A stretch of DNA of 64,000 nucleotides from Rhodospirillales bacterium (GTDB lineage Bacteria > Pseudomonadota > Alphaproteobacteria > Rhodospirillales > UBA2165): NCBI GenBank assembly GCA_965207535.1, contig CBDBMR010000004.1, positions 18,788 to 82,787 on the forward strand. The letters run 5' to 3'. The notes under the pieces were generated by a model, which saw only the letters and a list, made by a program, of their open reading frames with translations, had not been told where the DNA came from and did not search any database. The translations under genes were made by a program, and so were the position numbers. This document shows, in pieces, positions 1,086 through 29,272 of this stretch (positions are counted from its first letter, which is position 1; each line of letters opens with the position of its first letter).

Positions 1086-1889
1086 ATGATAGTTCATGGG
1101 CATGTGATGATGATTTTCGATGCGGCGTCAAAAAATCATTTGCCTTGCGGGGTGCGCGAGGTGCGTAATTGGCAATTACCACATTTAAGGCGGGTGAAGT
1201 TTGAATGGCCGCCTACCCGGCTCTTGAACAAAATCCATGCGCTGCATAACCGTCACGGGATCAAGCTGAAGAAGGAAAGCCTGTCCAGCAAGCGCCGCCT
1301 GATGGCGCTCGACATCGGCCGGTTCTCCGCCCTCGAGCAGGTCGAGCTCAAGGTGGTGCGCGACCAGGCCCTGGGCCTGACCGAGTCGGTCGCCGAACTG
1401 GACCGGGAGATCGAGCGCGCCGCCGGCGCCATGGACGGCTACGACAGCCTGGTCAGCATCAAGGGTATCGGTCCGCGTGCGGCCGCGGTCTTCCTGTCCG
1501 GCATCGGCGACGTCAACGACTTCGAGAGCGCCGACAAGCTGGCCGCCTATCTCGGCATCGTGCCCAGGGTCAGTCAATCGAACGAGTCGGTCAATTCGCG
1601 AAGCGAAATGATCTTAACCGACAACCGGGGGCGGATCACCAAGCGGGGCAACAAGCTGGTGCGCACCACGCTGGTGCAATGCACGCTGATCGCGATCCGC
1701 TACTCCGGCTATCTCAATGCCTTCTACCGCCGCATCAAGGAGCGGCGGGGCGCCGGCAAGGCGATCATCGCCACCGCCCGGAAGCTGCTCAAAATCATCT
1801 ACGACACGCTGAAAAACGGCTGGGTCTTCGAAGACTTTCCAAACTTCAAGAGACAGCAGGAACCCGTTTCCGCTGGACAACCATTATAG
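1086..1889 (+). pseudogene. IS110-family transposase, 5'-truncated remnant (C-terminal half only; the N-terminal DEDD/RuvC-like domain is missing)
   Basis: From about nt 1205 the ORF reads TRLLNKIHALHNRHGI...GIGPRAAAVFLSGIGDVNDFESADKLAAYLGIVPR...RITKRGNKLVRTTLVQ...AIIATARKLLKIIYDTLKNG, the conserved C-terminal half of IS110/IS116/IS902 transposases. The first ~40 codons are unrelated lower-GC sequence. It carries an in-frame ~12-codon insert (repeat 1584..1622). Confidence 0.8.
1584..1622 (+). repeat. Copy 1 of a ~38-nt direct repeat, inside the IS110 remnant ORF
   Basis: GAGTCGGTCAATTCGCGAAGCGAAATGATCTTAACCGAC compared with 1929..1966 GAGTCGGTCAATTCGGGACGAAATGACCTTAATTGATG. The first 15 nt are identical and about 31 of 38 aligned positions match, with two small indels. 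Confidence 0.8.
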
Positions 1890-1970: not shown

Positions 1971-4781
1971 TTGAAGAGGTTTACGGGCGCACCTGTCGCG
2001 GTGCGCTGGATCAAACGCCTCGGCAAGCGCGGCAAGGAGGGCGAGATCCATCACCGCCCCGGCCGCGACCTGGCCTTCAGCGCGCCCAAGAGCGTGTCCC
2101 TGGCCGCCCTGGTCGGCGGCGACGGGCGCATCGTCGAGGCGCATGACCGCGCCGTGGCGGGGGCGCTCGACTGGTTCGAGCGGAACGCCGCCGAGACCCG
2201 GATGCGGGACCCGGTACAGGGGCGCATGGTCCGGGCGGGCAACCAGAAGACGGTGATCGCCACCTTCCGCCACGACACGTCGCGGAACCTCGATCCCGCG
2301 CTGCACACCCATTCGGTGATCGCCAACATGGTGCAAGGCGAGGACGGCAAGTGGCGGACCATGGCCAACGAGCGGCTCTATGCCTCGAAGATGGCGCTGG
2401 GGGCGCTCTACCGCAACGCGCTGGCGGGCGAGCTCGGGAAGCTCGGCTACGCCATAGAGAAGACCCATGCCGACGGCCGGTTCGAGATCGCCGGTGTCTC
2501 GCGGGACATCGTGGAAGCCTTCTCCACGCGGCGGGCCGAAATCGAGGCGGCCATGGAGAGCCGGGGTCTGGGCACGACGGGTGAGAACCCGCACCTCGCC
2601 CGGCGCGCGGCGCTGATGACCCGGGCGGCCAAGCGCGAGGTGGACCGCGATGAACTGCGCGAGACCTGGGAGAAGCAGGCCGCCGCCCTCGGCTTCGACG
2701 CCAAGGGGCTGGTCGCGGAGGCGGTGGAGCGGGAATCGGCCGGTATGGCCCCACGGCGCAGCCTCGATGGGACCCTCGGGCCGACGAACGGCAGGACCCA
2801 TGACGGCCCCGGCGCCGCCGGCCGGGACGGAGCACCGGCGGCGGCGCGCCAGCCGGACCTGTTCGAGCACGCCGCGAAGGCGGACCCCGCGCGAACGGCG
2901 ATGGACTGGGCATTGGCCCATCTCTCGGAGCGCGATGCGGTGTTTTCCGATACCGGCCTGTTCGCGGCCGCGCTCGCCTTTGACCCCGGTTCGGCATCCA
3001 TCGGCGCCATCGAGCGGGCGGTGGAAGAGCTCAAGCGCGATGGCCGGCTGCACGATGCGCCGGGGCTGGCGGGCGGCGGCGGATTGACCACCGACAGGGC
3101 GCTGGCCGGGGAGCGGGAGACGGTCGCGCTGATGCGGAGCGGCGAACGGCGCGGCAAGGCACCCATGCGGGGCTGGATGGTGGAGCGGCACCTGCGCAAG
3201 GGACCGCTCACTGCCGGGCAGAAACAGGCGGTCAAGCTCATCCTGACCGAAAAGGACAGAACGGTGGGCGTCCAGGGCTACGCGGGCACGGGGAAGACGA
3301 AGATGCTGGCGCGTGCGAGGACGCTCGCCGGGAAGAAGGGCTGGCGCATGGTGGGCTTGGCGCCCTCGGCCTCGGCCGCGCGCACGCTCAACCAGGAATC
3401 CGGTATCGGTTCGGAGACCCTGCAACGCTTCCTCGCCCGCAACGCGGGCGTCGCCGAGGGCAGGCTGACCAGGAGGGGCGCGAAGGAAATGCGCAAGGCG
3501 TTCGCGAAGACCGTGCTGGTGGTCGACGAGGGCTCTCTCACATCCACCGTCCAGGCCCGCGACCTGCTCAGGATCGCGGGCGAACTGCGCATCCCGAAGC
3601 TGGTGCTGGTGGGGGATTCCAAACAGCTCGACGCGGTGGATGCCGGCAAGCCCTTCGCCCAGCTTCAGCAGGCGGGCATGAAGATGGCGGTGATGGACGA
3701 GATCCTGCGCCAGCGCGATCCCGGCCTGAAGGCGGCCGTGGAGGCGAGCCTCGCGGGTGAGATCGGCAAGGCATTCGACAGGCTCGGCGCCAATGTGGCC
3801 GAGGTCAAGGCCGACAACATCGCGGGCGCGGTGGCGGCAAGGTGGCTCAGGCTCTCCCCGGAGATGCGCGAGCACACCGGGGTGATGGCCCCGAGCCACG
3901 CGCTGCGGGAAGGCATCAACGGCCATATCCGCGAGCGCCTGGTGCGCGAGGGCCGTATTACCGGCCCCGTCCTGGAGACCTCGCGCCTGGTCTCGAAGGG
4001 CTACACCAACGCCGAGAAGTCGCTCGCGGCCAACTATGCACCGGGCGACGTGGTCGCGTTCCACCGTCCCTACAAACGGATCGGCGCCGCCAACGGCGAG
4101 GAGCGCCGGGTCGCCGGCGTCGACCGCAAGGAGGGAACCGTGCTGCTCGAAGCCCCGGGCGGCGGCACCGTCGCCTGGAAGCCGTCGGAGATCGGCGGGC
4201 GGCGGGGCGGAACGGAGGTCTACCGCCGCGAGAGCATGGAGCTTCGCGCCGGCGACCGCATCCGCTGGACCCGCAACGACAAGGGGCTCGGGCTGGTCAA
4301 CAGCGGGACCGCCGAAGTCATGGGCATCCGGAACGGCCGGGTGACGTTTCGGCTGGAGGACGGGCGCAGGCTCACGCTGACCCCGGGCGATCCGCAGCTT
4401 CGCCATCTGGACCATGCCTGGTGCTCGACCGTGCATGCGTTCCAGGGCCGCACGGTCGACAATGTTATTGCTGCGATGGAGGCGAACCATCCGGCATTGA
4501 CCACGCAGAAAGCGTTATACGTGGAAATCTCACGCGCCCGCGACCGGGCGGAGCTCGTGACCGACGACGCGCAGGCGCTCAAGGAACGCCTTGAAGCGGT
4601 CACGGGGATGCGCCTCTCGGCGCTGGAAGGCATCGGCGAGGACGTAAGCAGGGCGGGCGAGCGCGACGAAAGGGCCGCCCGGGAGAAGACGGAGCCGTCG
4701 AGGGACAGGATCGCACGCTCGACGCCGGAGCCCGAGCCAGCGGCGAAGACGAAGGTGCGCGAGATGAACCTCGGATTATAA
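1971..4781 (+). pseudogene. MOBF-type conjugative relaxase-helicase (TrwC/TraI/TraA-like), N-terminally truncated
   Basis: RDLAFSAPKSVSLAALVGGD and the His triad FRHDTSRNLDPALHTHSVIANM indicate a TrwC relaxase fold. RecD-like helicase motifs follow: Walker A GVQGYAGTGKT, Walker B VLVVDEGS, and C-terminal STVHAFQGRTVDNVI. The ~60-70 N-terminal residues that carry the catalytic Tyr in TrwC-type relaxases are absent. Confidence 0.8.
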
Positions 4782-11163: not shown

Positions 11164-12099
11164 CTATCTAACCGTTTTCTCCGGCGCTTCTTCGATCAGC
11201 TTTCTGAGCAGATTAAGGTGGACTACCAAGTCGTCCTCCTTGGGTAATTGAACCTGTTCCCTATTGTGGTGCAGCACGTCATTTGCAAGCTGCCTAAGTC
11301 GGTGTAACTCAGCCTTTGGGACGGGCAAGTTGGTGCAGCTCTCGATACGAGTATGCAAATTGCCGTCGGATGCCCCGTAGTGCTTGGACAAAGTCTTCTC
11401 CAGAATTGATCTCATGAGCGCGAGCGCGGCGAACGGCACTCCATACACAAATGCCTCTTGTGCTTGCCGCAACAATGTTCGAAGGGATAAAGCCTCAGTT
11501 TCTCCATGGTGGCGGTCGACGTGCCGGGGGATCAATACGAATGGCACCAGGATTCGTCGCCGGATTATGCCTCGTAAATCTAACCCCGCTTGAGAACGCA
11601 GGCGTTCCCAGTACACCACTCCTTCCAATATTTCCTCAACATAGTCTTCCGGAAATGAGCGGGACTCATCGGAGGCCTGCTCATCGGCAAAACTAATTGC
11701 CTCCTCTATCCGATTAGCCTGATATCGAGCATGGGCATCAGCCGCCTCTATCTCCGATTCAAGGCTTGGTTTCGAAGTAAAGAATTTAGTGACGGATTCA
11801 CTACCCAGAAAGTCAGAGAGAGAAACGTTCTCCACCGGAATTGCATACCGTTCTTCAAAGTCTCTCCATTTATTCACAAATTGTGGGTTCTCCGGGCCAG
11901 CAAAGAGTTGGCGTTCCAACCGTTCGTAGCGCCTTAGCCGGGAAGCCACGTCAAGAACTTCGAGGCAAATCCCTTTAACCGGCTCATCGGACTCGGCCAG
12001 CGCCTCGAGTCCAGACGGATCATCGTCAGTGTATTCCTGGAGCTTGAAATACAGGGCCATAAATTTCACAACTAGTTCGTGGTCCTTCTCGACCGCCAT
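11164..12099 (-). CDS. Hypothetical protein with a DUF4145-like (HEPN-related) C-terminal domain
   Basis: Lower-GC gene. The C-terminus AQEAFVYGVPFAALALMRSILEKTLSKHY...LHRLRQLANDVLHH resembles the DUF4145 pattern (helical hairpin, then hxxhRxxGNxxxH). Confidence 0.45.
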   Translation of the reverse strand: MAVEKDHELVVKFMALYFKLQEYTDDDPSGLEALAESDEPVKGICLEVLDVASRLRRYERLERQLFAGPENPQFVNKWRDFEERYAIPVENVSLSDFLGSESVTKFFTSKPSLESEIEAADAHARYQANRIEEAISFADEQASDESRSFPEDYVEEILEGVVYWERLRSQAGLDLRGIIRRRILVPFVLIPRHVDRHHGETEALSLRTLLRQAQEAFVYGVPFAALALMRSILEKTLSKHYGASDGNLHTRIESCTNLPVPKAELHRLRQLANDVLHHNREQVQLPKEDDLVVHLNLLRKLIEEAPEKTVR

Positions 12100-13316: not shown

Positions 13317-13839
13317 TATTTCGTCAATCTGTCAGGCTTTCTATATAAGCTCCTAAGGAAATGTCGGATTTGGCATTTGTGAAACGTCGCTGGCGTTTCA
13401 AAGGCGATTATTGTTCCAACCTTCTCCGCCCCTGTGACAACGTATGGATCGGCAAGGTAGGCGCAGTAACTCGCTGGTAGGTAGGCGACTCCCGCCCGAT
13501 ATCCTTCGAGAACAGCAAGGCGCCCGGGTCGCGGTATCCAGGCAGCGCCTCGACGACGGGCCGCGCGGCTGCGCTGAGCGGACCGGCCTTCGAATCGTCG
13601 AAAGACACTGTCGGGGCCATGGAAAAACCGACCGCTGGATCTCGCCGACTTGTGCGAGCGCACCGAGGCCGACGAAAACATCGCCGTCATCTTCGATCTG
13701 GACGCCGGAGACTCCAACCAAATCGTTAACCTATGCACGAAGAGCAAGAACATATGAGAGGCGAGATACGTGCACCACACACGCCACCCGGGCCAGCGCC
13801 GGCCGCGTCCGGCCGGCGTGGAACGATGTGGTTTCTCGG

Positions 13840-14145
13840 TCAGACGAGTTTGGCGCCGGTTGGCACTAGACCGGTTTCAGAGAACCGCCAAAGCGCAATA
13901 AGCAGCTTGCGGGCGAGCGCCACAACCATCACCCGGCGGATGCGCCCGCGAGCCCCGGCGGTGCGCTCGTTGAACTACTTGCTGAGCGCGCTATCGGGCT
14001 GATAGCGCAACCAGCGCCAGGCCATTTGGATGAGTTGTGCCCGGATCCATGCCGGATCGTCGCGGCCAATCCCCTGGTCGCGCTGCGTCTCGCGGCGACC
14101 GTCGCAGTGGAACCGGATTTATGCAGCGCCTTGGTCATGTTCGAA
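13840..14145 (-). pseudogene. IS110-family transposase 3' fragment with an in-frame stop
   Basis: My own translation of the minus strand: ...RDQGIGRDDPAWIRAQLIQMAWRWLRYQPDSALSK*FNERTAGARGRIRRVMVVALARKLLIALWRFSETGLVPTGAKLV*. This is the characteristic IS110 C-terminus (AWxWLRxQP...SxWF...IVALARKLLIALWR). A TAG sits where Trp is expected, and the 5' two-thirds of the gene is absent. Confidence 0.75.
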
Positions 14146-14348: not shown

Positions 14349-17300
14349 TCAAACGGACCTCTTTCGTGCCCTCCAAGGCAAAAGACTCTTTGTGACTCTC
14401 TGTGTGGTGAATGTCTGCTGCAGCGACTTCTCGTTGTCCGATATGGCGCGTTTGAACGCATGCCTCTGCTGTTTTACGAACCGCCGCTTCAAATCTTCTA
14501 AGGAGCCGTTTCCAACTGCATATTGGTCGTAGTCCTGGGACATCCATGTCCTGGCACGCCGGTCGCTACAGGCTATGAACAAACGCCAAAAGGCATGAGC
14601 AGCCTCGGCCGTATCAGCTTCGGCAAACTTCCGAAACCAATGGACGGCGAAGGCCTCTCTTTGGCCCATAATCCAGGAGTCATCATGTATATCCTGATAT
14701 TCGCCTATCGACGGGCCGCTTGGCCATTCCGCATCCCCAGCGATAGTGGGTCGAACGAACATGGGCTGAAGAAAGGCAGCCCGGCGTCGGTGTGCTGGGC
14801 AAGACGAACTTTCGTCTGAAGAAATTCTCTGCCCTAACCAGTCGATCCGGCCGGAACTTCGGGCCGCAACGACGATATCGAGTAAATCTTCGTCGGTTCG
14901 CGCTTCGTCGAGGTCGCATAGTTCATCCAAGACGGATTCGACCGCAGGACAATCCGGCGCCATGAATGGAGCAAATTTCAATCTGTCGATCCCGGTAAGG
15001 CCGATGAACCTCGTGGACTGACACTCTCGCAGGGCACGCCACAAAGGAATTCCACGAGACGGGTCACGTTTCAATACGGCCTCACATAGCCCGACGAAAA
15101 ACCCCTCGGCCAATCGAACTCTCCGGCGAAATTCATCCGTGAGCCGGTCGATGCCATCAAGCCAGCGGTCCAACGCCTCTGGACAGAGGTCGAGAACCTG
15201 ATCGAAGTCATCGGCGTGAAATCGGGTATGAAGAAATTGTGCCCCAGACTGCCGCGCCTGCCCGACGGCATTGATATAGGATTGAATGATCGTTCGTCGG
15301 CGCTCTTCATACTGTTCTGGCCTATTGACCCGTTCAAGGAGGGAACGGATATCATTCCCGTCGTCGCGATCTTCCACGATTTCACCGATCGTGAAATTGT
15401 AGTTCCCGGTGGAAGAGGCCTCATAGTCATGGAAGATATCGAGCCCCGATTCTGGAGCGTCCTTTTGGTATTGAGCCAGCGCGTTGGAAAGCAGATCCAC
15501 AGCAAGCTGTGCTTCATCCGGGAGCCGCGCTTCCCGGGACAGGGCTTCCAGCAACAGGAAGGGGGCGATCCGAGCGGCAAAATCAGAAAATCGGCGACCA
15601 CGGTGCGAGGCAATGATACCTCTTGAACCCATGATGTTTACCATGTGCGGCTGTGAGCACGACCATGACCAGTCTCTTTGATCGAGAGCATGTCCCAAGC
15701 ATTCTGCAGCGTTGGAACCCAGCAGGGCCCACGCTGCTTCAGAGGCGCCGTCTGAATCGGTGGAGAACAGGAGCTCGGAAAGGGCGTCGAACGCAGTTTC
15801 ACTGAGATCCAATTCGTATTCGACAAGGACGCTTGCTAATCGGTTCAACTTCCGCCTGTCGCCACCGCACAAAGCAATCAACTGATCGAGTTCGCTGGCG
15901 GACGGAGAATGGCAGACTCCCCCAAGACCCAGGAAGACGGGATCGATTTCTGAATCCAGAATTTTCGTCACTTGTTCTATAGGTGAGGCGCACTGAATTT
16001 CAGCAATCAGTAGGCCGGTCTGAATCAAGAGTTCGTCATCGTCAGATTCCCCGTGCCCTTGTTTCCTCAAGGTTTGCAGAGCTGCACTTTCTTCGTCCCT
16101 TACCAAGAGCATGACTTCCGGGGCAGCGAGCGCGGAACCAAAACGCTGATCTGGCGTACGTTCTGCAAATTGCCTCAATCGAGCGCGCTCGCAGTTAGCA
16201 AGACAGTCTGGATTGCATCTTGCAAGAGCGAGAGACAGGCGTTTCCATTGATCATCTTCGGACGTACGGTCCCTGCCCGTTGCCGTTTGGCTGAAATCGA
16301 AGCTCTCCGACACTACCGTCAGTTCATCAATGAAGTCTTGGGGAACCTGAAAGCTCGGATCGAGCAAAGCATCCTTTGACTTATTTATCCGACCAAACAT
16401 GGCAAGCGTCTTATCACAAAGCACCCTCGCCACGTGTCTTCGTTCGAGCCGAAAGTAAGAGCGCGCAGGATCGGAGAGATAGTCTCGCTCGTATTCAAAG
16501 ATGTGATCGATCTTGGGATCCATCGTCCAAGCCTCTTGCGCATCTTCGGAATATCCGGTGCGCCAAAGCAGGATGGATGCAATCCGCGCGTTGAGTTTCG
16601 GATGGTGGCCGGCTTCTACGGGAAGTGACCGTATTTCTTGGGATGCCGATCGAAGTCCTGCGGCTGTCTCTTCAGGATCAACGACATTGAGAATGTTCAG
16701 CCAGTACTGGGTTTCCTGTGCTGCCCCGCTACCAACGAGAGCAATTTGAATTGCCCCGTGAACGAAGAACTCGACGGCGTCCTTTAAGGGGCGTCCTTGC
16801 AACAGTTGAGCCGCCGCGACAATCAAATCTTCACCACTGTAGTCGACGATCTCGAAATTGCGGCACGCAATGGCGATCGTACCCGGCTCGGCTACACCTA
16901 TACGCTCCTTCAGGCGTTTGCACCGGCGCGCGTAACGTGAGTTGTCGGTGCGATCTGCTTCGTCCCCCCTCTTCTCGAGAGAGATGCAGTCTAGCCATCT
17001 CGATACGCGTTCCGCGATGGTTGCTGCAACGGCGGGGTCAGCCTTGTCGACCGCAGCTAGTACGTCGATGGCGATGTGCCTTGCAGTCGTTAGCGAATGC
17101 CCGCGGGAGGTTTCGATGACATCGAGCATCGGCGTAACCAGTGCGGGCGCAAGGACTTCAAGGTCGCCAAGATGGCTCTCGGGAACGTTCTGAGAATGAA
17201 GCCAACGAGTGCATAATGTGCCGAGCCATGCCGGTGATTCTGACTCGCTTCGCAGGAGGGCAATGGTCACAGCGGCGCGGAGAATCTCGGCGCGAACGTC

Positions 17301-19016
17301 ATATCCAGCGATGGGATCAAGGAAGTTGTCGAGTATGGTTGCCGGCTGTTCGCCGGGCTTGGCCCTGTCCATCTGAGAGACCAGCGCAAGACCCACGGCA
17401 TGGGAAACGAAATCGGGGTCGAATTCCAGCTCACCGTCCCGGTCGAGGGTGGCGAATATGCCGTCGATAACGCCTGAAACCCGGTGATAAACCTGATCCG
17501 ATGTTTGTATGGCCGAGGCGCTTAAGCTCTCGATGCGTTGACGTGTCGAGCGATTGCTTCCGTCTCTGTAGTCACGTGCCAGTTCCAGCAAGAACTGTCG
17601 CCATTCCGCCTCGCTGAAGGCACCGACCGATGCTTCTTGGATCGTGAATGCGCCGTAGGCCCAGAGAAGGCGATGGACGGTGACCTCTCCAACATCACCC
17701 AACTCCGACCTTAAACGGATGATGAGATCGAACATGCGCGGAATAGCGGCATGGTGAAGCAGCCGATCAGGCAAGTCGCCTCGGGAAAGGCCGGCGCCCT
17801 GCAGTTTCAGGTCCAATTCTCCGCCGGGTGTCAGATCGTAGTTTCCCACGTCGGTCCGATGGAGCGGAGCGATAAGGTTCGAAAGACGATGGAGCCGGTC
17901 CTCAAAAAAAGCGGTGCGCGTCGAAATCAGAGTTTGGACGCGTTGGTGGAAAGGAGCGTCTTCCAGCTGATGAAGGAGGCCGAGCCAATCACGCGAAGGG
18001 AGCTGGTTAATGCCATCGAAAAAGAGAAGGAACACATGGCCTTCATCGGCGGGCCGCGTTAGGAACCGTCCAACCCGTTTCTCCCAGTACAAAACGTCAC
18101 GCACTTCCGAAATATCGTGCAGGTACCGCGCAATCAAATGTAGCGCTTCATTTCCCCCGGAATCCGCGTGGCCAAGGGCTGAGGAGGGGGCGAGCACAAC
18201 TATAGGCAAGCTGTTTTGCCGATATTGCAGCCAATCCAGTGCAGCCCATGTCTTGCCCACACCTTCGGAGCCCACCAACGCCCCAACGGTGCCGTCATCA
18301 GAGCTATCGAGCCAAGAATCCAGGCTATCGATCAGGTTTGATCGGCGCACATGTCGTGCATTCTCGTCGCCGCCGGCCACATTCTGGCGAAACTTAGCCT
18401 GCGCCCTCCGACGCGAAGTCCAGATTTCTCGAAGGCGGCGATGACTGGAGTCTCGTACGGCGTCGTATCCGATCAACCAACTCTGGAGTTCTCTCTCGAT
18501 GAGTTGCAGCGTGGAAGCGTACTCTGGCAGTTCCGATATTCGCTTGAGAAGGGGCCTGTGTTGTTCGCCGAACTCGGTCGAAAAAAATTCCGGGCAGCTG
18601 GCGGCGAGAGCGGCAAGCCTCGGCAAAGGACGCGGCAACCAGTCGATCGAGACTGTGGCGATGCCATTGCTCAGGCCGACCTCGCCCATGGCATCCTGGA
18701 TCTGTTCAGGAACTTCTAGAGTCGTAACCAAGAGCCAAGCTTCGAGATCGGGGTGGCGTTTGCATGCCTGATCGATTTCACCGCGGATGCTTCGCTCGTC
18801 GAGCCTCGAGTTCGACCCGTAGCGGCGGGCCTCGAACACAAGGTATCTTCCTCCAATGCCTGATACACCCCCGTCGCCTCCTCTCTGGTTGCCGGAACGG
18901 GCCTGCCTGAATGGAACCCTCAGCAAGGCACCCAGGGCGAATCCTGCAAGTCGTTCGAGATGCTTCGGATCGGCTTCCAACAGGATCGAACGGAGTTGAT
19001 CGCACAAATCAGGCAT
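14349..19016 (-). CDS. Giant Mrr-like nuclease / STAND P-loop NTPase / long helical C-terminal region protein (Avs-like antiviral STAND candidate), 1,555 aa
   Basis: The ATG at 19016 is preceded by GGGGAG. N-terminus: LERLAGFALGALL...RGGDGGVSG...YLVFEARRYG...AWLLVTTLEVPEQ, which follows Mrr-cat logic (DGG-D ... E-x-K/R ... hhhTT). Walker A GSEGVGKTW lies at 18249-18272, and the Walker B-like motif is HVFLLFFDGINQL. More than 1,000 further residues carry no motif I recognise. Confidence 0.7.
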   Translation of the reverse strand: MPDLCDQLRSILLEADPKHLERLAGFALGALLRVPFRQARSGNQRGGDGGVSGIGGRYLVFEARRYGSNSRLDERSIRGEIDQACKRHPDLEAWLLVTTLEVPEQIQDAMGEVGLSNGIATVSIDWLPRPLPRLAALAASCPEFFSTEFGEQHRPLLKRISELPEYASTLQLIERELQSWLIGYDAVRDSSHRRLREIWTSRRRAQAKFRQNVAGGDENARHVRRSNLIDSLDSWLDSSDDGTVGALVGSEGVGKTWAALDWLQYRQNSLPIVVLAPSSALGHADSGGNEALHLIARYLHDISEVRDVLYWEKRVGRFLTRPADEGHVFLLFFDGINQLPSRDWLGLLHQLEDAPFHQRVQTLISTRTAFFEDRLHRLSNLIAPLHRTDVGNYDLTPGGELDLKLQGAGLSRGDLPDRLLHHAAIPRMFDLIIRLRSELGDVGEVTVHRLLWAYGAFTIQEASVGAFSEAEWRQFLLELARDYRDGSNRSTRQRIESLSASAIQTSDQVYHRVSGVIDGIFATLDRDGELEFDPDFVSHAVGLALVSQMDRAKPGEQPATILDNFLDPIAGYDVRAEILRAAVTIALLRSESESPAWLGTLCTRWLHSQNVPESHLGDLEVLAPALVTPMLDVIETSRGHSLTTARHIAIDVLAAVDKADPAVAATIAERVSRWLDCISLEKRGDEADRTDNSRYARRCKRLKERIGVAEPGTIAIACRNFEIVDYSGEDLIVAAAQLLQGRPLKDAVEFFVHGAIQIALVGSGAAQETQYWLNILNVVDPEETAAGLRSASQEIRSLPVEAGHHPKLNARIASILLWRTGYSEDAQEAWTMDPKIDHIFEYERDYLSDPARSYFRLERRHVARVLCDKTLAMFGRINKSKDALLDPSFQVPQDFIDELTVVSESFDFSQTATGRDRTSEDDQWKRLSLALARCNPDCLANCERARLRQFAERTPDQRFGSALAAPEVMLLVRDEESAALQTLRKQGHGESDDDELLIQTGLLIAEIQCASPIEQVTKILDSEIDPVFLGLGGVCHSPSASELDQLIALCGGDRRKLNRLASVLVEYELDLSETAFDALSELLFSTDSDGASEAAWALLGSNAAECLGHALDQRDWSWSCSQPHMVNIMGSRGIIASHRGRRFSDFAARIAPFLLLEALSREARLPDEAQLAVDLLSNALAQYQKDAPESGLDIFHDYEASSTGNYNFTIGEIVEDRDDGNDIRSLLERVNRPEQYEERRRTIIQSYINAVGQARQSGAQFLHTRFHADDFDQVLDLCPEALDRWLDGIDRLTDEFRRRVRLAEGFFVGLCEAVLKRDPSRGIPLWRALRECQSTRFIGLTGIDRLKFAPFMAPDCPAVESVLDELCDLDEARTDEDLLDIVVAARSSGRIDWLGQRISSDESSSCPAHRRRAAFLQPMFVRPTIAGDAEWPSGPSIGEYQDIHDDSWIMGQREAFAVHWFRKFAEADTAEAAHAFWRLFIACSDRRARTWMSQDYDQYAVGNGSLEDLKRRFVKQQRHAFKRAISDNEKSLQQTFTTQRVTKSLLPWRARKRSV

Positions 19017-19415
19017 ATGGACGCTCCCCTGCATACCGATCATTCCGGGTTGGCAGCTCGATCGTGTGCCAAACGTACCTGGAAATGCAGCGTCCTCGCT
19101 CGGATGCTGTTCCTATACGGTCTGTGTCCTATAACCGAAAATCCACAGCGCGGTGTCAAGACACGCTCAAGAGGCAACACGCGCGAGCCCTAGATCCAGG
19201 CAGTCATTAGGAACCTGTTCTAAGTACATAGTCACTAATCCCAAAGCCCGAACGATGTCGCCATCATCAGACAAGGTGACCGGACTTCGGTTATTCTGCA
19301 TTTATTTCTCCTGCTTGTGGTCAAATGATATTGATCTCTGTTTGTCTGGCGAGGAACTGGGGGTAGCAAGTGTGACGTGAGACTTAACTTCTCTCTAGTC
19401 ATGGGGAGAGACCGG

Positions 19416-20155: not shown

Positions 20156-22936
20156 ATGCGCCTGTCGTGGAACGAGGTTCGCGCCCGCGCCGCCGTCTTC
20201 GCCGAGGACTGGAAGGACGCGGCCTACGAAAAGGGCGAGACGCAGAGCTTCTACAACGCCTTCTTCGACGTGTTCGGAGTGCAGCGGCGGAACGTCGCCC
20301 GCTACGAGCAGCACGTCGCCAAGCTGGACAACCATTCGGGCTTCATCGACCTGTTCTGGCCGGGCGTGCTGCTCGTCGAACAGAAGAGCGCCGGGCGCGA
20401 TCTCCGCAAAGCCTACGAACAGGCCGGGGAGTATTTCGACGCGCTGCCGGAACGCGAGCGCCCGCGCTTCATCCTGGTGAGCGACTTCCGGACCTTCGAG
20501 CTGCACGATCTCGACGAGCGGGAGACCGCCGCCTTCCCGCTCGCCGACCTGCCCGCCCATGTCGAGTCGTTCGGCTTCATCCTCGGGGTGCAGCGCCGCA
20601 CATTCCGCGACCAGCACCCGGCGAACATCGAGGCCGCCGAACTGGTCGGGCGGCTGCACGACGCGCTCGACGCGGCCGGCTACCAGGGCCACGATCTCGA
20701 ACGCTTCCTGGTGCGGATCGTCTTCTGCCTGTTCGCCGACGACACCGGCATTTTCGAGCCGCGCGACATCTTCCTCGACTTCATCGAGACGCGGACGAGC
20801 GAGGACGGGGCCGACCTCGGGCCGTGGCTCGCGCAACTGTTCGAGGTGCTCGACACGCCGGAGGACGGGCGCGCGGCGACCCTCGACGAAGACCTCGCCC
20901 GGTTCCCCTACGTCAACGGCGCGCTGTTCGACGAACCGCTCAGGATTCCATCCTTCGACGCAGGGATGCGCGGGGCGTTGCTCGACGCCTGCCGTTTCGA
21001 CTGGTCGAACATCTCGCCGGCGATCTTCGGCGCGCTCTTTCAGTCGGTCATGGACCCGGCGGAGCGCCGCGCCCAGGGGGCGCACTACACGACCGAGAAG
21101 AACATCCTCAAGGTGATCGAGCCCCTGTTCATGGACGACCTGCGGGCCGAATTCGAACGCCTGAAGGCGCGGCGCGACAACCGCCGCCGGCCCGACCTGC
21201 TGCGCTTCCAGGAACGGCTCGGCGCACTCCGCTTCCTCGACCCGGCCTGCGGCTGCGGCAACTTTCTCATCATCGCCTACCGGGAATTGCGGCTGCTCGA
21301 AATCGAGGTGCTGAAGGAGGTGTACGCCAGCGGCCAGCTCGACGCCCTGGCGGAGACGCTGTCGCTGGTGGACGTAGATCAGTTCTACGGCATCGAGCTT
21401 GGCGAGTTCCCGGCCCGCATCGCGGAGACGGCGCTGTGGATGATGGACCACATCATGAACAACCGGCTGAGCCTTGCGCTCGGTGAAACCTTCGTCCGCA
21501 TTCCGCTCGAGAAGTCGCCCCACATCGTCCACGGCGACGCGCTGGAAACCGACTGGGCCGAACTGCTGCCGCCGGGCGATTGCTCGTTCGTGCTGGGCAA
21601 TCCGCCGTTCGTGGGCTCCAAGTACCAGACGGCGGAACAGCGCGCCCAGGTGCGCGAAATTGCCGCGCTCGGCAAGAGCGGCGGCACGCTCGATTACGTC
21701 GCCGCGTGGTTCATCAAGGCGGGCGAGTATGTGAAGGGCGGCGGGGCCCGGATCGGCTTTGTCGCCACCAACTCGATCACCCAGGGCGAACAGGTGGCGC
21801 AGCTATGGCCGGTCCTGTTCGAGCGCTGCAAGCTGGAGATCGCCTTCGCCCACCGGACCTTCGCCTGGGGATCGGACGCGCGCGGCAAGGCGCATGTGCA
21901 TGTGGTCATTCTCGGCCTCGACCGGCGGGAGGCCGCGCGGGCGGAGAAGCGGCTGTTCAGCTATCCCGACATCAACGGCGACCCGGAGGAAAGCCGTCAC
22001 GCGGCGCTGTCGCCGTACCTGTTCGATGCGGGCGGGTTGTCCGACCCGCATTTGGTGGTGCGGGAGGAAAGCGGGCCGATCAATGGGATGTCACAGCTTC
22101 TCACCGGCTCACAGCCAATCGACGATGGGCAATACATTTTCGACGCGGCGGAACGCGCCACGTTTTTGGAGGCGGAGCCGGACGCCGCGCCGTGGCTTCG
22201 GCCTTTCATCGGAGCGCGGGAATACTTGCAGGGCGCCGAGCGGTGGATTTTGGCGCTGCACGACGCGCCGCCCGAAGTGCTGTCGCGGCTGCCCCAAGTG
22301 CGGGAGCGGATCGCTGCCGTTCGGGCGTTTCGGCGGGAAAGCAAACGCAAATCAACCTTGAAGCTGGCCGACACACCGACGCTCTGGCAGGTCAACGTGC
22401 TTCCCGACGCGCCGTTTCTGGTGATTCCGGAAGTCAGTTCGGAACGCCGGGAGTACGCGCCCATCGGCTGGCTGGAGCCGCCGGTCATTCCGAGCAATCT
22501 CGTGCGGATTCTGCAAAACGCGAGCTTGGCCAATTTCGCGCTGCTCACGTCGTCCATGCACATGGCGTGGCTGCGCCATATCGGCGGACGACTCAAGAGC
22601 GACTACCGCTACTCCATCGGCCTCGTCTACAACACCTTTCCGCTGCCGCCCAAGGACTCGAACCTGTCAAAATTGGGGCCGCTCGCCCAGGCCGTGCTGG
22701 ACGCCCGCGTCGCTCATCCGGGCGCGACGCTCGCCGACCTCTACGACCCGGACCTGATGCCGCCGAACCTGCGCCGGGCGCATCAGGCGCTCGACCGCGC
22801 CGTGGACCGGCTCTACCGGCGCTCGGGGTTCGCGTCCGAGCGCGAGCGCGTCGAACATCTGTTCATGCTGTATGAGAAGATGCGGGCGCCCTTGGAAATC
22901 GGTATGAAGAGGAAACCACGCCGACGGCGAAAGTGA
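20156..22936 (+). CDS. MmeI-family type IIL/IIG restriction-modification enzyme (N-terminal PD-ExK nuclease fused to an N6-adenine methyltransferase and a target-recognition domain)
   Basis: Nuclease motif: FIDLFWPGVLLVEQKSAG, giving D65-X9-E75-X-K77. Helical spacer: ERFLVRIVFCLFADDTGIF. SAM motif I: FLDPACGCGNFLI. Catalytic motif IV: LGNPPFVG. At 926 aa it has the single-polypeptide size typical of this family. The start lies 12 nt after the higA stop codon. Confidence 0.8.
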   Translation: MRLSWNEVRARAAVFAEDWKDAAYEKGETQSFYNAFFDVFGVQRRNVARYEQHVAKLDNHSGFIDLFWPGVLLVEQKSAGRDLRKAYEQAGEYFDALPERERPRFILVSDFRTFELHDLDERETAAFPLADLPAHVESFGFILGVQRRTFRDQHPANIEAAELVGRLHDALDAAGYQGHDLERFLVRIVFCLFADDTGIFEPRDIFLDFIETRTSEDGADLGPWLAQLFEVLDTPEDGRAATLDEDLARFPYVNGALFDEPLRIPSFDAGMRGALLDACRFDWSNISPAIFGALFQSVMDPAERRAQGAHYTTEKNILKVIEPLFMDDLRAEFERLKARRDNRRRPDLLRFQERLGALRFLDPACGCGNFLIIAYRELRLLEIEVLKEVYASGQLDALAETLSLVDVDQFYGIELGEFPARIAETALWMMDHIMNNRLSLALGETFVRIPLEKSPHIVHGDALETDWAELLPPGDCSFVLGNPPFVGSKYQTAEQRAQVREIAALGKSGGTLDYVAAWFIKAGEYVKGGGARIGFVATNSITQGEQVAQLWPVLFERCKLEIAFAHRTFAWGSDARGKAHVHVVILGLDRREAARAEKRLFSYPDINGDPEESRHAALSPYLFDAGGLSDPHLVVREESGPINGMSQLLTGSQPIDDGQYIFDAAERATFLEAEPDAAPWLRPFIGAREYLQGAERWILALHDAPPEVLSRLPQVRERIAAVRAFRRESKRKSTLKLADTPTLWQVNVLPDAPFLVIPEVSSERREYAPIGWLEPPVIPSNLVRILQNASLANFALLTSSMHMAWLRHIGGRLKSDYRYSIGLVYNTFPLPPKDSNLSKLGPLAQAVLDARVAHPGATLADLYDPDLMPPNLRRAHQALDRAVDRLYRRSGFASERERVEHLFMLYEKMRAPLEIGMKRKPRRRRK

Positions 22937-22990
22937 TGACTTTTTTGCGATGGTCTTGGTTTGGCTTGGCGGATCACGAGAACGAATCCG

Positions 22991-24091: not shown

Positions 24092-25490
24092 TGCGGGGTC
24101 GTGGGCGCCGCGCCCCGTTAGGCTAAGCAAGGAGAGTGACCATGGGTGAGTACGTTGGCTTTGATGTTTCGAAGGAAGAGACAGCATTTTGCGTGAAGGA
24201 CGGTGCAGGAGAGATTTTGGCGCAAGGCAAGGCGGAGACCGACCCTCGGGCGTTGTTTGAGGTGTTGAAGGAGCATTGTCTGTGTCCGGATCGGATTGTT
24301 CTGGAGACCGGGACACTGTCGGGCTGGCTGGCACGGAGTCTGGACGAGATGGGGATTGCGGTGGAAGTGATCGATGCCCGCCAGGCCCATGCGGTGATGC
24401 GTCTTCAACACAACAAGACCGATGCCAAGGACGCCGAGCTTCTGGCGGAGATCGCGCGCACCGGCTTCTGCCGCCCTGTATCGGTGAAGAGCGAGTTGGC
24501 CCAGGAGAGTCGGGTTCTGCTCAAGGCTCGGTCTCACCTGGTGCGCCAGCGCCGCGATACTCACAACACGATCCGGGGTCTTCTTGCCTCGTTGGGGATC
24601 CGTTTTCCCAAGGGCACGAGCAAGCTGCTCCGCGGAGTGCGCGCGCAGCTCGAGGACCGTCCCGAGCTACGCCCGGCGATTGCGCCGTTGCTGTCCTCGC
24701 TCACGGCGCTGGACAGCACGATTGCGGAGCTGGATGAGGCGGTCGCTGCGCGCGTCAAGGACGATCCGGCCTGCCGCCTGCTGATGACCGTGCCCGGAGT
24801 CGGACCGCTCACGGCGCTGGCCTATGTGAGTACCATCGGCGACGCCGGGCGCTTCGCCCGATCGCGCAGCTTGGGCGCTTATCTCGGGCTGACCTCCAGA
24901 CGTTGGCAATCGGGCGAGATGGATTACAGCGGGTGCATCTCCAAGCACGGCGACGCGATGCTGCGCAGCTTATTGTACGAGGCCGCCAACAGCCTGCTTG
25001 TGGTGGTGCGCCGGGCCCATCCGCTCAAGGACTGGGCGCGGCGGATCAAAAAGCGGACCAGCCACAAGAAGGCCTGCGTGGCCCTGGCGCGCAAGCTTGC
25101 GGTGATCCTCCATCGCATGTTGATCACTGGCGAGCCGTTCCGCTGGCCGGCCCGAGAGATTCAGGCGGCATGAGTGAGAGAACGGACTGCGTAGACGACG
25201 GTAACGAGCACGAGGAGACAACATAGTTCCGCACGAGCGGAAAGGCGCGTCCCCGCCGGGACGTCGGCCGAGGCCATCCCGTTTTATGTGTTGCAAGGCG
25301 GCTCAGGCCGCCAACAATGCGTCCTCTGACCCTGGGAGGCCGAAGCCAAAGGGCACCATCATGAAGCAAGCCAGCCAGAGCGCCGGCAAAGACTTCGTAG
25401 ACAACCCTGTACCCGGCGGCGGCAAGCCCGGAGGAGTTGACCCGAACGCCGGAATTAGACAACACATTTAGAGCGATGGGGGTTATGACG
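24092..25490 (+). mobile_element. IS110-family insertion sequence (IS1111-like layout: short 5' end, long 3' non-coding end); boundaries approximate
   Basis: The high-GC block begins right after the stop codon of the low-GC upstream gene and ends where the low-GC sequence resumes, near 25480-25500. Only 44 nt precede the transposase ATG, while about 300 nt follow its stop codon. Confidence 0.6.
24136..25173 (+). CDS. IS110-family transposase, full length (345 aa)
   Basis: SD AAGGAGAG upstream. N-terminus YVGFDVSKEETAFCV carries the first Asp of the DEDD motif. C-terminus: LMTVPGVGPLTALAYVSTIGDAGRFARSRSLGAYLGLTSRRWQSGEMDYSGCISKHGDAMLRSLLYEAA...KKACVALARKLAVILHRML. Confidence 0.9.
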   Translation: MTMGEYVGFDVSKEETAFCVKDGAGEILAQGKAETDPRALFEVLKEHCLCPDRIVLETGTLSGWLARSLDEMGIAVEVIDARQAHAVMRLQHNKTDAKDAELLAEIARTGFCRPVSVKSELAQESRVLLKARSHLVRQRRDTHNTIRGLLASLGIRFPKGTSKLLRGVRAQLEDRPELRPAIAPLLSSLTALDSTIAELDEAVAARVKDDPACRLLMTVPGVGPLTALAYVSTIGDAGRFARSRSLGAYLGLTSRRWQSGEMDYSGCISKHGDAMLRSLLYEAANSLLVVVRRAHPLKDWARRIKKRTSHKKACVALARKLAVILHRMLITGEPFRWPAREIQAA

Positions 25491-26886: not shown

Positions 26887-28095
26887 TCAAAGCTGGCGGT
26901 CCCGGTCCAACCGAGGAGGTGGGCGGGACGATGTCCGGCCGCATGGGAGGCGCATCGCCTCGGCGATCAAGCTCCCGACCTTCTCCGCCGCCTCGACCAG
27001 ATGGCCGTCGTCAAGGTGGGCGTATCCCGCCGTGGTCTCGTACCGCCGGTGACCGAGCAGCTTTCCGACCAGCGCCAGGTTCTCACCCGCCATGACGGCC
27101 TGGCTGGCCGCCGTGTGGCGCAGGTCGTGCAGGCGCAGGCGGCCAAGCCCCGCATCTTCACAGACCGTCCGCCAGCAGTTCGTGAGAACCCAGATTCCCC
27201 GGCCTTCGGCATGGCGCGGAAACAGGAACGCATCCGGGTCGCCAGGACCGGGCAGCACCTCGATGAGCGCCCGCGCGGCCTCGCCGAGCGGCACGGCGCG
27301 CGGGCCGGTTTTCGAATCTTCGAGGTTCAACGCATCCGCGCTGACATTGCGCCAGCGCAGATTCAGAACTTCGCTGCGGCGGCACCCGGTCAGGGCCAGC
27401 AGCCGGATCGCAGCGACGGCCTCGGGCCAGCGGTCCTCATGGGCGTCGAGCGCACGCCCGAGTCGCGTCAGTTCATCGGTATCGAGGAACCGCGCGACCT
27501 TCTTCCTCGGGTTCTTCCGGATACCCAGGCAGGGGTTGGTGTCCCGCTCGCGCATTCCCCACTCCTCGGCCCGGAACATCATCGCGCGCAGGATCTCGAG
27601 CGCGCGGTTGGCCGCGCCGGGTTTGTCCCTGCTCGCCGCGTCGAACCACGCGGCCACGTCCTCCAGACCGATTTGGTCGAGAGGCATCCTGCCGAACGTG
27701 GGCAGGATGCGGGCTTTCAGGTAGATGCGCACGGTCCTGCGCCCGGAGGGCTTCCAGTGCGGATCGCAGCGCCGCAGATACTCGTCTGAAAACTCCCGCA
27801 GCGTCGGGGTCTGCTTGTCTTTCTGGATGTCGTCCGCGGGATTATCGCCCGCGCGGATGCGGGCGAGCATGTCGCGGGCGCGGCGGCGGGCCTCCACGAG
27901 CTCCATCTCTCCATGCCGGGCGATGACGATGCGGCGGCTCCGCCCCTCGATGCGGGCCTGCACGATCCAGATCTTGCTGCCCGAGGGATGGATGCGAAGG
28001 CCGAAGCCGGGCAAAGCCTTGTCGAACAGGATGGTGTCCTTCGGGCCGGGCCGGCTCGCGCGGGCCAGCTTCGCGGTAAGATCAACCCTTGGCAT
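26887..28095 (-). CDS. P4-type tyrosine integrase (DUF4102 arm-binding N-domain), downstream member of an overlapping pair
   Basis: The ATG at 28095 is preceded by GGGAGAG. N-terminus: FDKALPGFGLRIHPSGSKIWIVQARIEGRSRRIVIARHGEM. Catalytic residues: LTGCRRSE, LHDLRHTAAS, LGHRRYETTAGYAHL. Confidence 0.85.
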   Translation of the reverse strand: MPRVDLTAKLARASRPGPKDTILFDKALPGFGLRIHPSGSKIWIVQARIEGRSRRIVIARHGEMELVEARRRARDMLARIRAGDNPADDIQKDKQTPTLREFSDEYLRRCDPHWKPSGRRTVRIYLKARILPTFGRMPLDQIGLEDVAAWFDAASRDKPGAANRALEILRAMMFRAEEWGMRERDTNPCLGIRKNPRKKVARFLDTDELTRLGRALDAHEDRWPEAVAAIRLLALTGCRRSEVLNLRWRNVSADALNLEDSKTGPRAVPLGEAARALIEVLPGPGDPDAFLFPRHAEGRGIWVLTNCWRTVCEDAGLGRLRLHDLRHTAASQAVMAGENLALVGKLLGHRRYETTAGYAHLDDGHLVEAAEKVGSLIAEAMRLPCGRTSSRPPPRLDRDRQL

Positions 28096-29272
28096 GATCG
28101 CACTCTCCCTTGTTCTTCGCACCGTTTCCGGCCAGGGCCGCATGGATGCGGTTCGATACCCGGTCGGCGGCGTCCGTGACCGACCGGTCCGACAGATGGA
28201 CGTATCGCTCGGTCGTCTCGACCAGCGAATGGCCCAGCAGCTTGGCGATGGTCACCATGTCCAGGCCGTTCATGGCCGCGATCGAAGCCCAGCTATGGCG
28301 CAAATCGTGCAGCCGCAGACCGGGCAGTCCGGCCTCGGCGCGGATGCGGTTCCAATGGGACGCGATGTTGTCGATGGGCCGCGTCGGCGGACGGACGGGA
28401 AACAGATACGGGCAATCCTCGCCATAGCGCGGGATGGCGTCGATCACGGCCCGCGCCGCGCTCGACAGCCAGACCGTACGCGGACCCGACTTCGAGTCGG
28501 GAAGGAATATCCGCTTGCCCTTGATCCAGTCCCATTCGAGCGAGGCGATTTCGCCGAAGCGGCAGCCGGTCAGCATCAGCAAACGGATGACGGCGACGGC
28601 CTGGGGGCAATAGAACTCGTCGCGGGTGAGCACGGCGTTAAGCCGGGCCATCTCCTCGGCGTCGAGGAACCGCTCCTTCGGCTCCATCCTGTATCGTTTG
28701 GCGTTCTTGCACGGATTGGAGTTGTGCCGGCGGTATCCCCAAAGCTCGGCCATGCGCATCATCATGGACAGCACCGGCATGGCGCGGTTGGCGACGCCGG
28801 GCCGCCCGGCCATGGACGCGAACCAGTCCTTGACGTGCTCGGACGCGATGGCGTCCACGGTCAGATGACCGAAGGCGGGCAGGATGTCCTTGCGGACCAT
28901 GTAGGCGTTGGTCTCCTGGGTCCGGGGCTTCCAGTGCCGGGCCTGCCGGTCGAGGAATTCCTCCGCGAAGGCATCCATCGGATGCCCCGGCGTCCTGGGG
29001 CCGCCGCCGTTCTTCACCGTTTCGGTGAAGGCGGCAATCAGCCTGCGGGCTTCGGCGCGCGCCTCCGGGACCGTCATGGTCTCGGCATTGCCCACGGTGG
29101 CGTAGCGCCTGCGGCCGCGCAACGTGGTCTCCAGCGTGAAGCTGCGCGCGCCGCTCGGGAAGACACGGAGCCTCAGGCCGGGCACCGCGTCGTCGCGGAC
29201 GTCGAAGCGCTTGTCGCGGGGCTTGGCGGCGCGGACGCGCCGGGCGAAGGTGGATTTGGTCTGCTCGCTCAT
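28082..29272 (-). CDS. P4-type tyrosine integrase (DUF4102 N-domain), upstream member of the overlapping pair
   Basis: SD GAGGAG upstream. N-terminus: VRDDAVPGLRLRVFPSGARSFTLETTLRGRRRYATVGNAETM. Catalytic residues: LTGCRFGE, LHDLRHSWAS, LGHSLVETTERYVHL. Its stop codon at 28082-28084 lies 14 nt inside the next integrase ORF. Confidence 0.85.
   Translation of the reverse strand: MSEQTKSTFARRVRAAKPRDKRFDVRDDAVPGLRLRVFPSGARSFTLETTLRGRRRYATVGNAETMTVPEARAEARRLIAAFTETVKNGGGPRTPGHPMDAFAEEFLDRQARHWKPRTQETNAYMVRKDILPAFGHLTVDAIASEHVKDWFASMAGRPGVANRAMPVLSMMMRMAELWGYRRHNSNPCKNAKRYRMEPKERFLDAEEMARLNAVLTRDEFYCPQAVAVIRLLMLTGCRFGEIASLEWDWIKGKRIFLPDSKSGPRTVWLSSAARAVIDAIPRYGEDCPYLFPVRPPTRPIDNIASHWNRIRAEAGLPGLRLHDLRHSWASIAAMNGLDMVTIAKLLGHSLVETTERYVHLSDRSVTDAADRVSNRIHAALAGNGAKNKGECDHAKG

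Follow-up and report, generated by a model that had tools for sequence, protein, structure and literature searches.

A predicted Avs-like STAND receptor with an Mrr-like nuclease domain, encoded by a single gene on a putative mobile defence island of a Rhodospirillales bacterium

Results

The gene and its reading frame

A stretch of 64,000 nucleotides from a Rhodospirillales bacterium (GenBank assembly GCA_965207535.1, contig CBDBMR010000004.1, positions 18,788 to 82,787 of the forward strand), here called the window, was found to carry a long, complete gene on the minus strand (14349..19016) for a protein with the features of a signal transduction ATPase with numerous domains (STAND), in which an N-terminal nuclease-like domain is followed by an NTPase module and a C-terminal region of nearly one thousand residues. 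The uninterrupted open reading frame (ORF) comprises 1,564 codons (14349..19043), and a protein of 1,564 aa would result if translation began at the upstream ATG, in frame at 19043. As GGGAG is located 7 nt before a second ATG at 19016, and as close homologues begin at the position matching this ATG, it is the more plausible start of the gene, giving a protein of 1,555 aa; residue numbers used here count from the ATG at 19043. The length of the ORF and the existence of hundreds of full-length homologues indicate that it is not a chance feature.

This ORF had been singled out in a first-pass annotation made from the sequence alone, and it is present and intact, with 19043 as the alternative start. 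The motifs quoted there, GGDGGVSG (containing D57), LVFEARRYG (E71 and R73), LLVTTLEVPEQ, GSEGVGKTW (K264) and HVFLLFFDGINQL, were all located at the residues assigned to them; GSEGVGKTW spans nt 18246-18272, the range 18249-18272 given earlier covering its first 8 codons only. The description of the segment as visibly low in guanine plus cytosine (GC) also held, the gene having a GC content of 0.52-0.59 and the flanking DNA one of 0.63-0.73. Promoter and terminator scans gave a number of sites not above chance expectation.

An N-terminal Mrr-like nuclease domain

Residues ~10-140 (18624..19016, minus strand) were assigned to an Mrr-like PD-(D/E)xK nuclease domain from the structural model, profile matches of the family and residue conservation. 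The first half of the modelled domain comprises a helix (26-41, with the invariant E30), a strand (45-47), the GGDGG loop with D57 and a strand (68-75) carrying E71-A-R73-R-Y; the second half comprises a helix (83-96), a strand (102-107, EAWLLVTT), a helix (113-126) and a strand (129-133). This order of secondary structure elements in the AlphaFold model is compatible with a PD-(D/E)xK core, and the putative catalytic core is D57 ... E71-x-(K/R)73 (18825..18875, minus strand). Column statistics over 260 family members (248-260 per column) revealed complete or near-complete conservation of E30 (244/248), Q53 (257/257), D57 (257/258), E71 (258/260), Y75 (256/260) and T108 (250/259), while position 101, E in the window protein, is E or D in all members. 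The domain is followed by a helical linker (residues ~141-250; 18294..18623, minus strand) of seven predicted helices, which holds conserved W208, Q220 and an AGG motif at 223-225.

PD-(D/E)xK enzymes canonically have lysine as their third catalytic residue. The family as a whole follows the D...(D/E/Q)xK pattern, and the window protein follows it only with a conservative K-to-R change. Arginine at this position had been flagged as unusual; it is indeed present, but it is not an oddity of this one gene, since 156 of the 260 members (60%) have K at position 73 and the other 104 (40%) have R, with no other residue found. The R73-type proteins form a subclade nearer to the window protein, which belongs to it (median identity 57% over residues 1-600), whereas K73-type proteins are more distant (median 37%, a range overlapping that of the R type). 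Arginine has been retained in a subclade that spans 33-99% identity, and D57 and E71 are unchanged there; this points to selection on a working site rather than to decay.

The relation to Mrr was reached through relatives, as the nuclease domain of the window protein itself gave no Mrr_cat match in the Pfam scan. When 58 N-terminal fragments of family proteins were scanned, Mrr_cat was the Pfam model matched most often (10 fragments, best E 4.6e-6); weak matches to Mrr_cat_2 and to the model for NACHT-associated restriction endonuclease (REase) domains also appeared, and 2 of 31 full-length members matched Mrr_cat as well. In an hhalign comparison with an E. coli Mrr alignment (E 0.0012), the α1 glutamate, GDGG and (E/Q)A(K/R)R(Y/W) were aligned in register, and the D-to-E spacing of 14 in the family equals the D-to-Q spacing of E. 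coli Mrr (GDGGIDG ... VQAKRW). The Mrr profile was shallow because no usable Mrr relative was less than 70% identical, and comparison with E. coli Mrr alone gave a probability of 1.8%. When the N-terminal domain was used in an exhaustive profile search for Mrr proteins outside the family, the 150 listed matches were all family members or their fragments (E<=1e-22). The Mrr-like nuclease identity of the family, reached transitively in this way, appears well supported, and the domain is predicted from its conserved residues to be catalytically active.

Beyond the shared order of α1 glutamate, G-D-G-G loop, (E/Q)-A-(K/R)-R-(Y/W) and hydrophobic-TT strand, the family differs from E. coli Mrr (Mrr_cat, PF04471) in having E for the Q of the Mrr QxK motif, and R for K in 40% of members. 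The second Asp of the Mrr GDGGIDG is absent from the window protein (GGDGGVSG), as is the N-terminal winged-helix DNA-recognition domain of Mrr, the nuclease here being an effector fused to a STAND switch.

A NACHT-like NTPase module

Residues ~251-575 (17319..18293, minus strand) form a NACHT-like STAND NTPase module with nucleotide-binding and helical domains and a winged-helix-like region. The Walker A motif GSEGVGKTW (residues 258-266; 18246..18272, minus strand) is almost invariant in the family, with G261 in 218/218 members, K264 in 216/217 and T or S at 265 in 217/217. The Walker B motif, FLLFFDGINQ (residues 338-347; 18003..18032, minus strand), contains D343-G344 in 209/209 members and N346 in 204/209, and position 347 is occupied by Q in 168 and by E in 41. 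Thus N346 and Q/E347 stand where the canonical NACHT sequence DGLDE has its acidic D-E pair: 138 of the 209 members have DGLNQ, 32 have DGLNE and two have the canonical DGLDE or DGIDE. The Mg-binding Asp of Walker B is kept and the catalytic base has probably been lost, which suggests that ATP is bound without efficient hydrolysis; because Asn-Gln replaces the acidic pair after the Walker B Asp, ATP binding, not hydrolysis, would be the probable switch. This reading agrees with the report that SeAvs7, an antiviral STAND (Avs) protein, is activated via a nucleotide-dependent conformational change and not via hydrolysis (PMC13581612).

A strand at 369-376 ends in an S-T-R motif (residues 374-376; 17916..17924, minus strand), the Arg of which corresponds to sensor 1 and is R in 197/209 members. 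The helical and winged-helix-like region contains a PR motif at 435-436 and a VHR motif (H457 in 165/207); we suggest that the HR of the latter may correspond to the ADP-contacting His of STAND proteins, which has been noted for SeAvs7 (PMC13581612).

Among Pfam NTPase models, the window protein gave a single, non-significant match, to AAA_25 (E 0.14), while full-length members of the family matched NACHT (5/31, best E 2.4e-4), AAA_22 (18/31) and AAA_16 (8/31). The first-pass annotation had proposed structural comparison of the NTPase region as a check, and residues 1-600, modelled by AlphaFold with a predicted local distance difference test score (pLDDT) of 82 and a predicted template modelling score (pTM) of 0.82, did match solved STAND proteins in a Foldseek search. 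The best match in the Protein Data Bank (PDB) was Avs4 with the PhiV-1 portal (8dgf; E 1.3e-9, template modelling (TM) score TMq 0.44), followed by CED-4, NLRP3, RPP1, Apaf-1 and Dark (E 2e-6 to 4e-5). Generic AAA+ proteins (NSF, ORC/Cdc6) also matched, as expected from the shared core.

A C-terminal α-solenoid

The remaining ~990 residues (576-1564; 14352..17318, minus strand) were identified from the AlphaFold model and from conservation as an α-solenoid, which is presumed to be the sensor. The model, obtained with 17 sequences in the alignment (pLDDT 87, pTM 0.86), consists almost entirely of helical repeats with four short β elements. The region carries many family-invariant Trp, Arg and Asp residues, and its mean column identity is 54%, compared with 58% for the N-terminal 600 residues. 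The initial description of this part as lacking any nameable motif was borne out by library and profile searches; its description as unrecognisable was not, as it is a conserved and confidently modelled α-solenoid. Foldseek searches with the model retrieved generic HEAT/ARM solenoids such as karyopherins, CRM1, CAND1 and mTOR (E ~1e-4), and no Avs sensor, including that of 8dgf, was among the 50 listed matches. Lee et al. 2026 (PMC13581612) give the α-solenoid as the most frequent kind of Avs sensor.

Distribution of the family

Among the candidates tested, at least 229 homologues were found at E<=1e-3, nearly all of them 1,530-1,600 aa long and aligning over 97-100% of the window protein at 33-99% identity. 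An alignment of 31 sequences had a mean column identity of 54% end to end, with invariant residues as far as W1557, and the profile search with the N-terminal domain yielded 1,069 cluster representatives. Relatives occur in at least 159 species genomes, and the best 80 loci are from Alpha-, Beta- and Gammaproteobacteria, Latescibacterota, Nitrospinota, Thermodesulfobacteriota, Myxococcota and others. NCBI relatives, which include Geomonas terrae E4633_03740, a Hyalangium rubrum homologue and OXU42_11260 from a metagenome-assembled genome, are labelled as hypothetical proteins, as the window gene also would be under present annotation models, and two UniRef relatives are named "NACHT domain-containing protein". 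Searches of PDB sequences with the single sequence and with full-length, 1-600 and 10-142 profiles returned noise alone.

N-terminally extended relatives (P0142, P0139, P0170 and others) were considered as alternative architectures and rejected; as no extra domain was found in them, the extensions are probably artefacts of gene calling. Two full-length paralogues, 55% and 54% identical to the window protein and lying ~2 Mb apart (L006 and L008), were found in the metagenome-assembled genome OZ241875.1. No relatives of the family were found in phage genomes, and a plasmid search gave one full-length relative and one sister family. The sister protein (1,512 aa), encoded on the Sphingobium yanoikuyae plasmid NZ_CP060127.1 (L086, 5788-10326), is 26% identical to the window protein across the first ~820 residues and 24% identical across the last ~250, and has the motifs E-G-K and DGLNQ. 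It is annotated as a 'NACHT domain-containing protein', scores 26.6 bits against NACHT (E 6e-6; cut-off 26.7 bits), and its gene is flanked by a VapBC toxin-antitoxin pair and by a pair encoding an AAA ATPase and RloB.

Genomic context in the window

A degraded 3' remnant of an IS110-family transposase gene (~13830..14140, minus strand) lies directly past the stop codon of the STAND gene, in agreement with the earlier mention of an adjoining IS110 remnant. Its translation reads '...VMVVALARKLLIALWRF', preceded by stop codons, and over ~190 nt its DNA is 77-79% identical to IS110 genes from plasmids. On the other side, 1.1 kb upstream of the STAND gene and divergent from it, is a complete gene (20156..22936, plus strand) for a 926-aa MmeI-type (type IIL) restriction-modification enzyme, which contains all five MmeI Pfam domains (N, helicase spacer, methyltransferase, target recognition and C; E 3e-83 to 9e-27). 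The GC content of this gene is host-like, unlike that of the neighbouring genes.

A gene for a 311-aa protein with a C-terminal DUF4145 domain (11164..12099, minus strand; E 6e-7) sits in the part of the island with the lowest GC content (~0.51), and is not conserved beside homologues of the STAND gene. Between the MmeI-type gene and an intact-looking gene for a 345-aa IS110 transposase (24136..25173, plus strand; DEDD_Tnp_IS110 and Transposase_20), in a sharply AT-rich patch (GC 0.47), is an ORF of 376 aa (22961-24091, plus strand) that gave no Pfam match and may be another cargo gene. A second IS110-like C-terminal region, divergent and 32% identical to that transposase, was seen within the ORF at 1086..1889 (plus strand). 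Genes for a 936-aa TrwC relaxase/helicase (1971..4781, plus strand) and for a 418-aa tyrosine integrase with an Arm DNA-binding domain (26887..28143, minus strand) are also present, and suggest that an integrative conjugative or mobilisable element occupies about the first 28 kb of the window; no tRNA genes were found in the 64-kb window. Taken together, the relaxase, IS110, integrase, MmeI and DUF4145 genes point to an integrative or mobilisable element with defence cargo.

An ORF of 44 codons (19166-19300, minus strand; MQNNRSPVTLSDDGDIVRALGLVTMYLEQVPNDCLDLGLARVAS) with a strong ribosome-binding site, AGGAG, lies ~120 nt upstream of the STAND gene. It was considered as a conserved associated gene (19300..19166) and rejected, as it is not kept upstream of homologues.

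Neighbourhoods in other genomes

Clustering of 1,177 flanking ORFs from 77 homologous loci gave no neighbour family present at more than 10 of the 77 loci and none at a fixed position. The STAND gene, previously described as standing alone, is a stand-alone unit. In Geomonas terrae (L001, 12684-16093), two co-directional genes for proteins of 573 and 563 aa lie between the homologue and the Tn7-like genes tnsA/B/C; they do not recur at other loci and their products have no Pfam match, and a conserved partner gene was rejected. Individual loci carry Tn7-like genes, insertion sequence elements and integrases. Among 131 proteins encoded within two genes of the homologues (~33 loci), matches were found to Lamassu LmuB, Gabija GajB/UvrD and type I restriction-modification methylases, as well as to SAVED effector, DRT reverse transcriptase-helicase and ArdC models.

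Discussion

The protein encoded at 14349..19016 is likely to be a single-protein Avs-like antiviral STAND receptor, comparable to bacterial NLR-like proteins and carried on a mobile defence island. Its tripartite layout of nuclease, STAND NTPase and long sensor, proposed in the first-pass annotation, is borne out by the Mrr_cat and NACHT matches of relatives and by the structural match to Avs4 (8dgf), while the antiviral function is a prediction by analogy. As in the published structural definition of the Avs class (PMC13601566, PMC13581612), an effector and a STAND NTPase are joined to a sensor of at least 400 aa, and with regard to the criterion of Lee et al., namely defence genes nearby or a defence-type effector, the gene has both an Mrr-like effector and the MmeI-type restriction-modification and DUF4145 genes alongside.

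In the proposed mechanism, the NACHT-like NTPase module would keep the resting protein inactive as a monomer, and the ~990-residue α-solenoid would bind a conserved protein of the invader, by analogy a core phage structural or replication protein. Ligand binding would free the ATP-bound NTPase to oligomerise, solved Avs proteins being tetramers, and oligomerisation would unite the N-terminal Mrr-like PD-(D/E)xK domains into an active nuclease, which would cut DNA indiscriminately and so abort the infection. In SeAvs3, EcAvs4 and SeAvs7, tetramerisation joins and activates the N-terminal nuclease domains (PMC13601566).

Several observations weigh against this interpretation. Pfam, NCBIfam and PADLOC 2.0.0 gave the window protein nothing below E 0.1, and the PADLOC check for an Avs type came out negative, with no Avs or NLR model matching any of the 31 members (the window protein and 30 relatives). 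Comparison of profiles gave a weak match to Mrr (probability 19%, 63 aligned columns), and model confidence is lowest in the catalytic loop around D57 (pLDDT below 50, residues 51-64). The match to 8dgf was obtained with the model of residues 1-600, and may or may not include the nuclease domain, while the sensor resembles generic HEAT/ARM solenoids alone (TM ~0.2), which gives no pointer to a ligand. The defence genes in the neighbourhoods amount to a descriptive observation with no background control, and part of the matches are to generic proteins (UvrD/GajB, SMC/LmuB).

A role outside defence would make the protein a signalling or regulatory NTPase, or a factor in the maintenance of, or competition between, mobile genetic elements, with the nuclease-like domain serving for DNA binding or site-specific processing. 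Lee et al. (PMC13581612) find STAND clades of defence and of other roles interspersed, the family has a uniform length and is conserved throughout, and carriage on integrative conjugative, plasmid and Tn7-like elements could equally reflect the biology of these elements; moreover, 2 of the 58 N-terminal fragments weakly matched the Pfam model for NACHT-associated inactive REase domains. This explanation nevertheless seems unlikely, as the D/E/(K|R) triad is more than 99% conserved, which argues for an active enzyme, and as the taxonomic distribution is sporadic, the loci are variable and have no conserved partner, and defence genes recur nearby; Mrr was also among the effector seeds used by Lee et al. 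to search for defence STAND proteins (PMC13581612). The substitution at position 73 raises the related question of whether the protein is an Avs-like receptor with a crippled nuclease, the copy being inactive or signalling without DNA cleavage, since Lys is canonical at the third site and the window protein has Arg. The occurrence of Arg in 104 of 260 members throughout its subclade, the invariance of D57 and E71, and the intact, full-length ORF make such a loss very unlikely.

A true Avs4-family portal sensor like EcAvs4, diverged in sequence, would account for 8dgf being the best solved match to residues 1-600, for the same domain order, for the near-equal length (1,534-1,541 modelled residues as against 1,555) and for the Mrr-like N-terminal nuclease present in both (for Avs4, PMC13601566). 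However, the PADLOC Avs models match neither the protein nor its 30 relatives, sequence and profile searches miss 8dgf even at E<=10, and the listed matches of the C-terminal model are eukaryotic solenoids that do not include 8dgf. Unrelated sensors can also occur on a similar chassis, and portal sensing has arisen more than once (Lee et al., PMC13581612); identity with Avs4 is the least probable of the explanations considered here.

The Avs-like receptor preferred here is nonetheless closest in plan to EcAvs4, with which it shares a single polypeptide of ~1,550 residues, the succession of Mrr-like nuclease, STAND NTPase and large helical sensor, and the expected activation of the N-terminal nuclease by ligand-induced oligomerisation (PMC13601566). 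It differs in having no detectable sequence similarity to EcAvs4 (PADLOC; HMMER and profile searches against the PDB, E<=10), in a solenoid that does not retrieve the Avs4 sensor among the 50 matches listed, in the DGxNQ Walker B motif of the family and in the replacement of the nuclease Lys by Arg in its own subclade. With the bNACHT/NLR-like proteins and the Avs catalogue it has in common GxGKT, hhhhDGhN(Q/E) for DGhDE, the (S/T)xR of sensor 1, an N-terminal effector, a C-terminal repeat sensor and an association with defence islands, whereas its ~990-residue HEAT/ARM-like solenoid has no specific solved counterpart and PADLOC 2.0.0 models are unmatched. The fold of nucleotide-binding, helical and winged-helix domains is shared with Apaf-1, CED-4, NLRP3 and RPP1 (Foldseek E 2e-6 to 4e-5); these proteins have a CARD, PYD or TIR effector in place of the nuclease, other sensor repeats and 11-15% identity. 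The protein is thus a new member, at the level of family, of the Avs/bacterial-NLR class, and neither Avs4 nor another of Avs1-5 as currently modelled.

Lee et al. (Nature 2026) described 589 prokaryotic STAND clades, of which 198 are defence-associated, and at least 90 prevalent sensor types (PMC13581612). Because Mrr seeded that search and many STAND clades were covered, the family is probably within their catalogue. A more ambitious reading, which we put forward tentatively and regard as doubtful, is that the protein is the founding example of an uncharacterised, phylum-spanning Avs-like family with an unusually conserved solenoid, a trigger outside the known Avs ligands, a hydrolysis-dead DGxNQ switch and a PD-(D/E)xR nuclease; the trigger might be a protein of conjugation or of integrative conjugative elements rather than a core protein of tailed phages, because the gene often rides on conjugative and integrative elements.

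If the Avs-like assignment is correct, a large family of bacterial NLR-like receptors, exemplified by a window protein with no significant Pfam or NCBIfam match, is invisible to the 2023 PADLOC models and would therefore be uncounted in surveys that rely on such models, and one more sensor would be added to the map of invader proteins recognised by bacteria. Because at least 90 Avs-type sensor families are already on record, one further family is useful and not surprising; it adds to a long list of Avs-type receptors and overturns nothing. The natural Lys/Arg variation at the PD-(D/E)xK site offers a probe of the chemistry that the nuclease site tolerates, and the Asn-Gln found for the acidic pair after the Walker B Asp offers a probe of whether STAND receptors need ATP hydrolysis or ATP binding.

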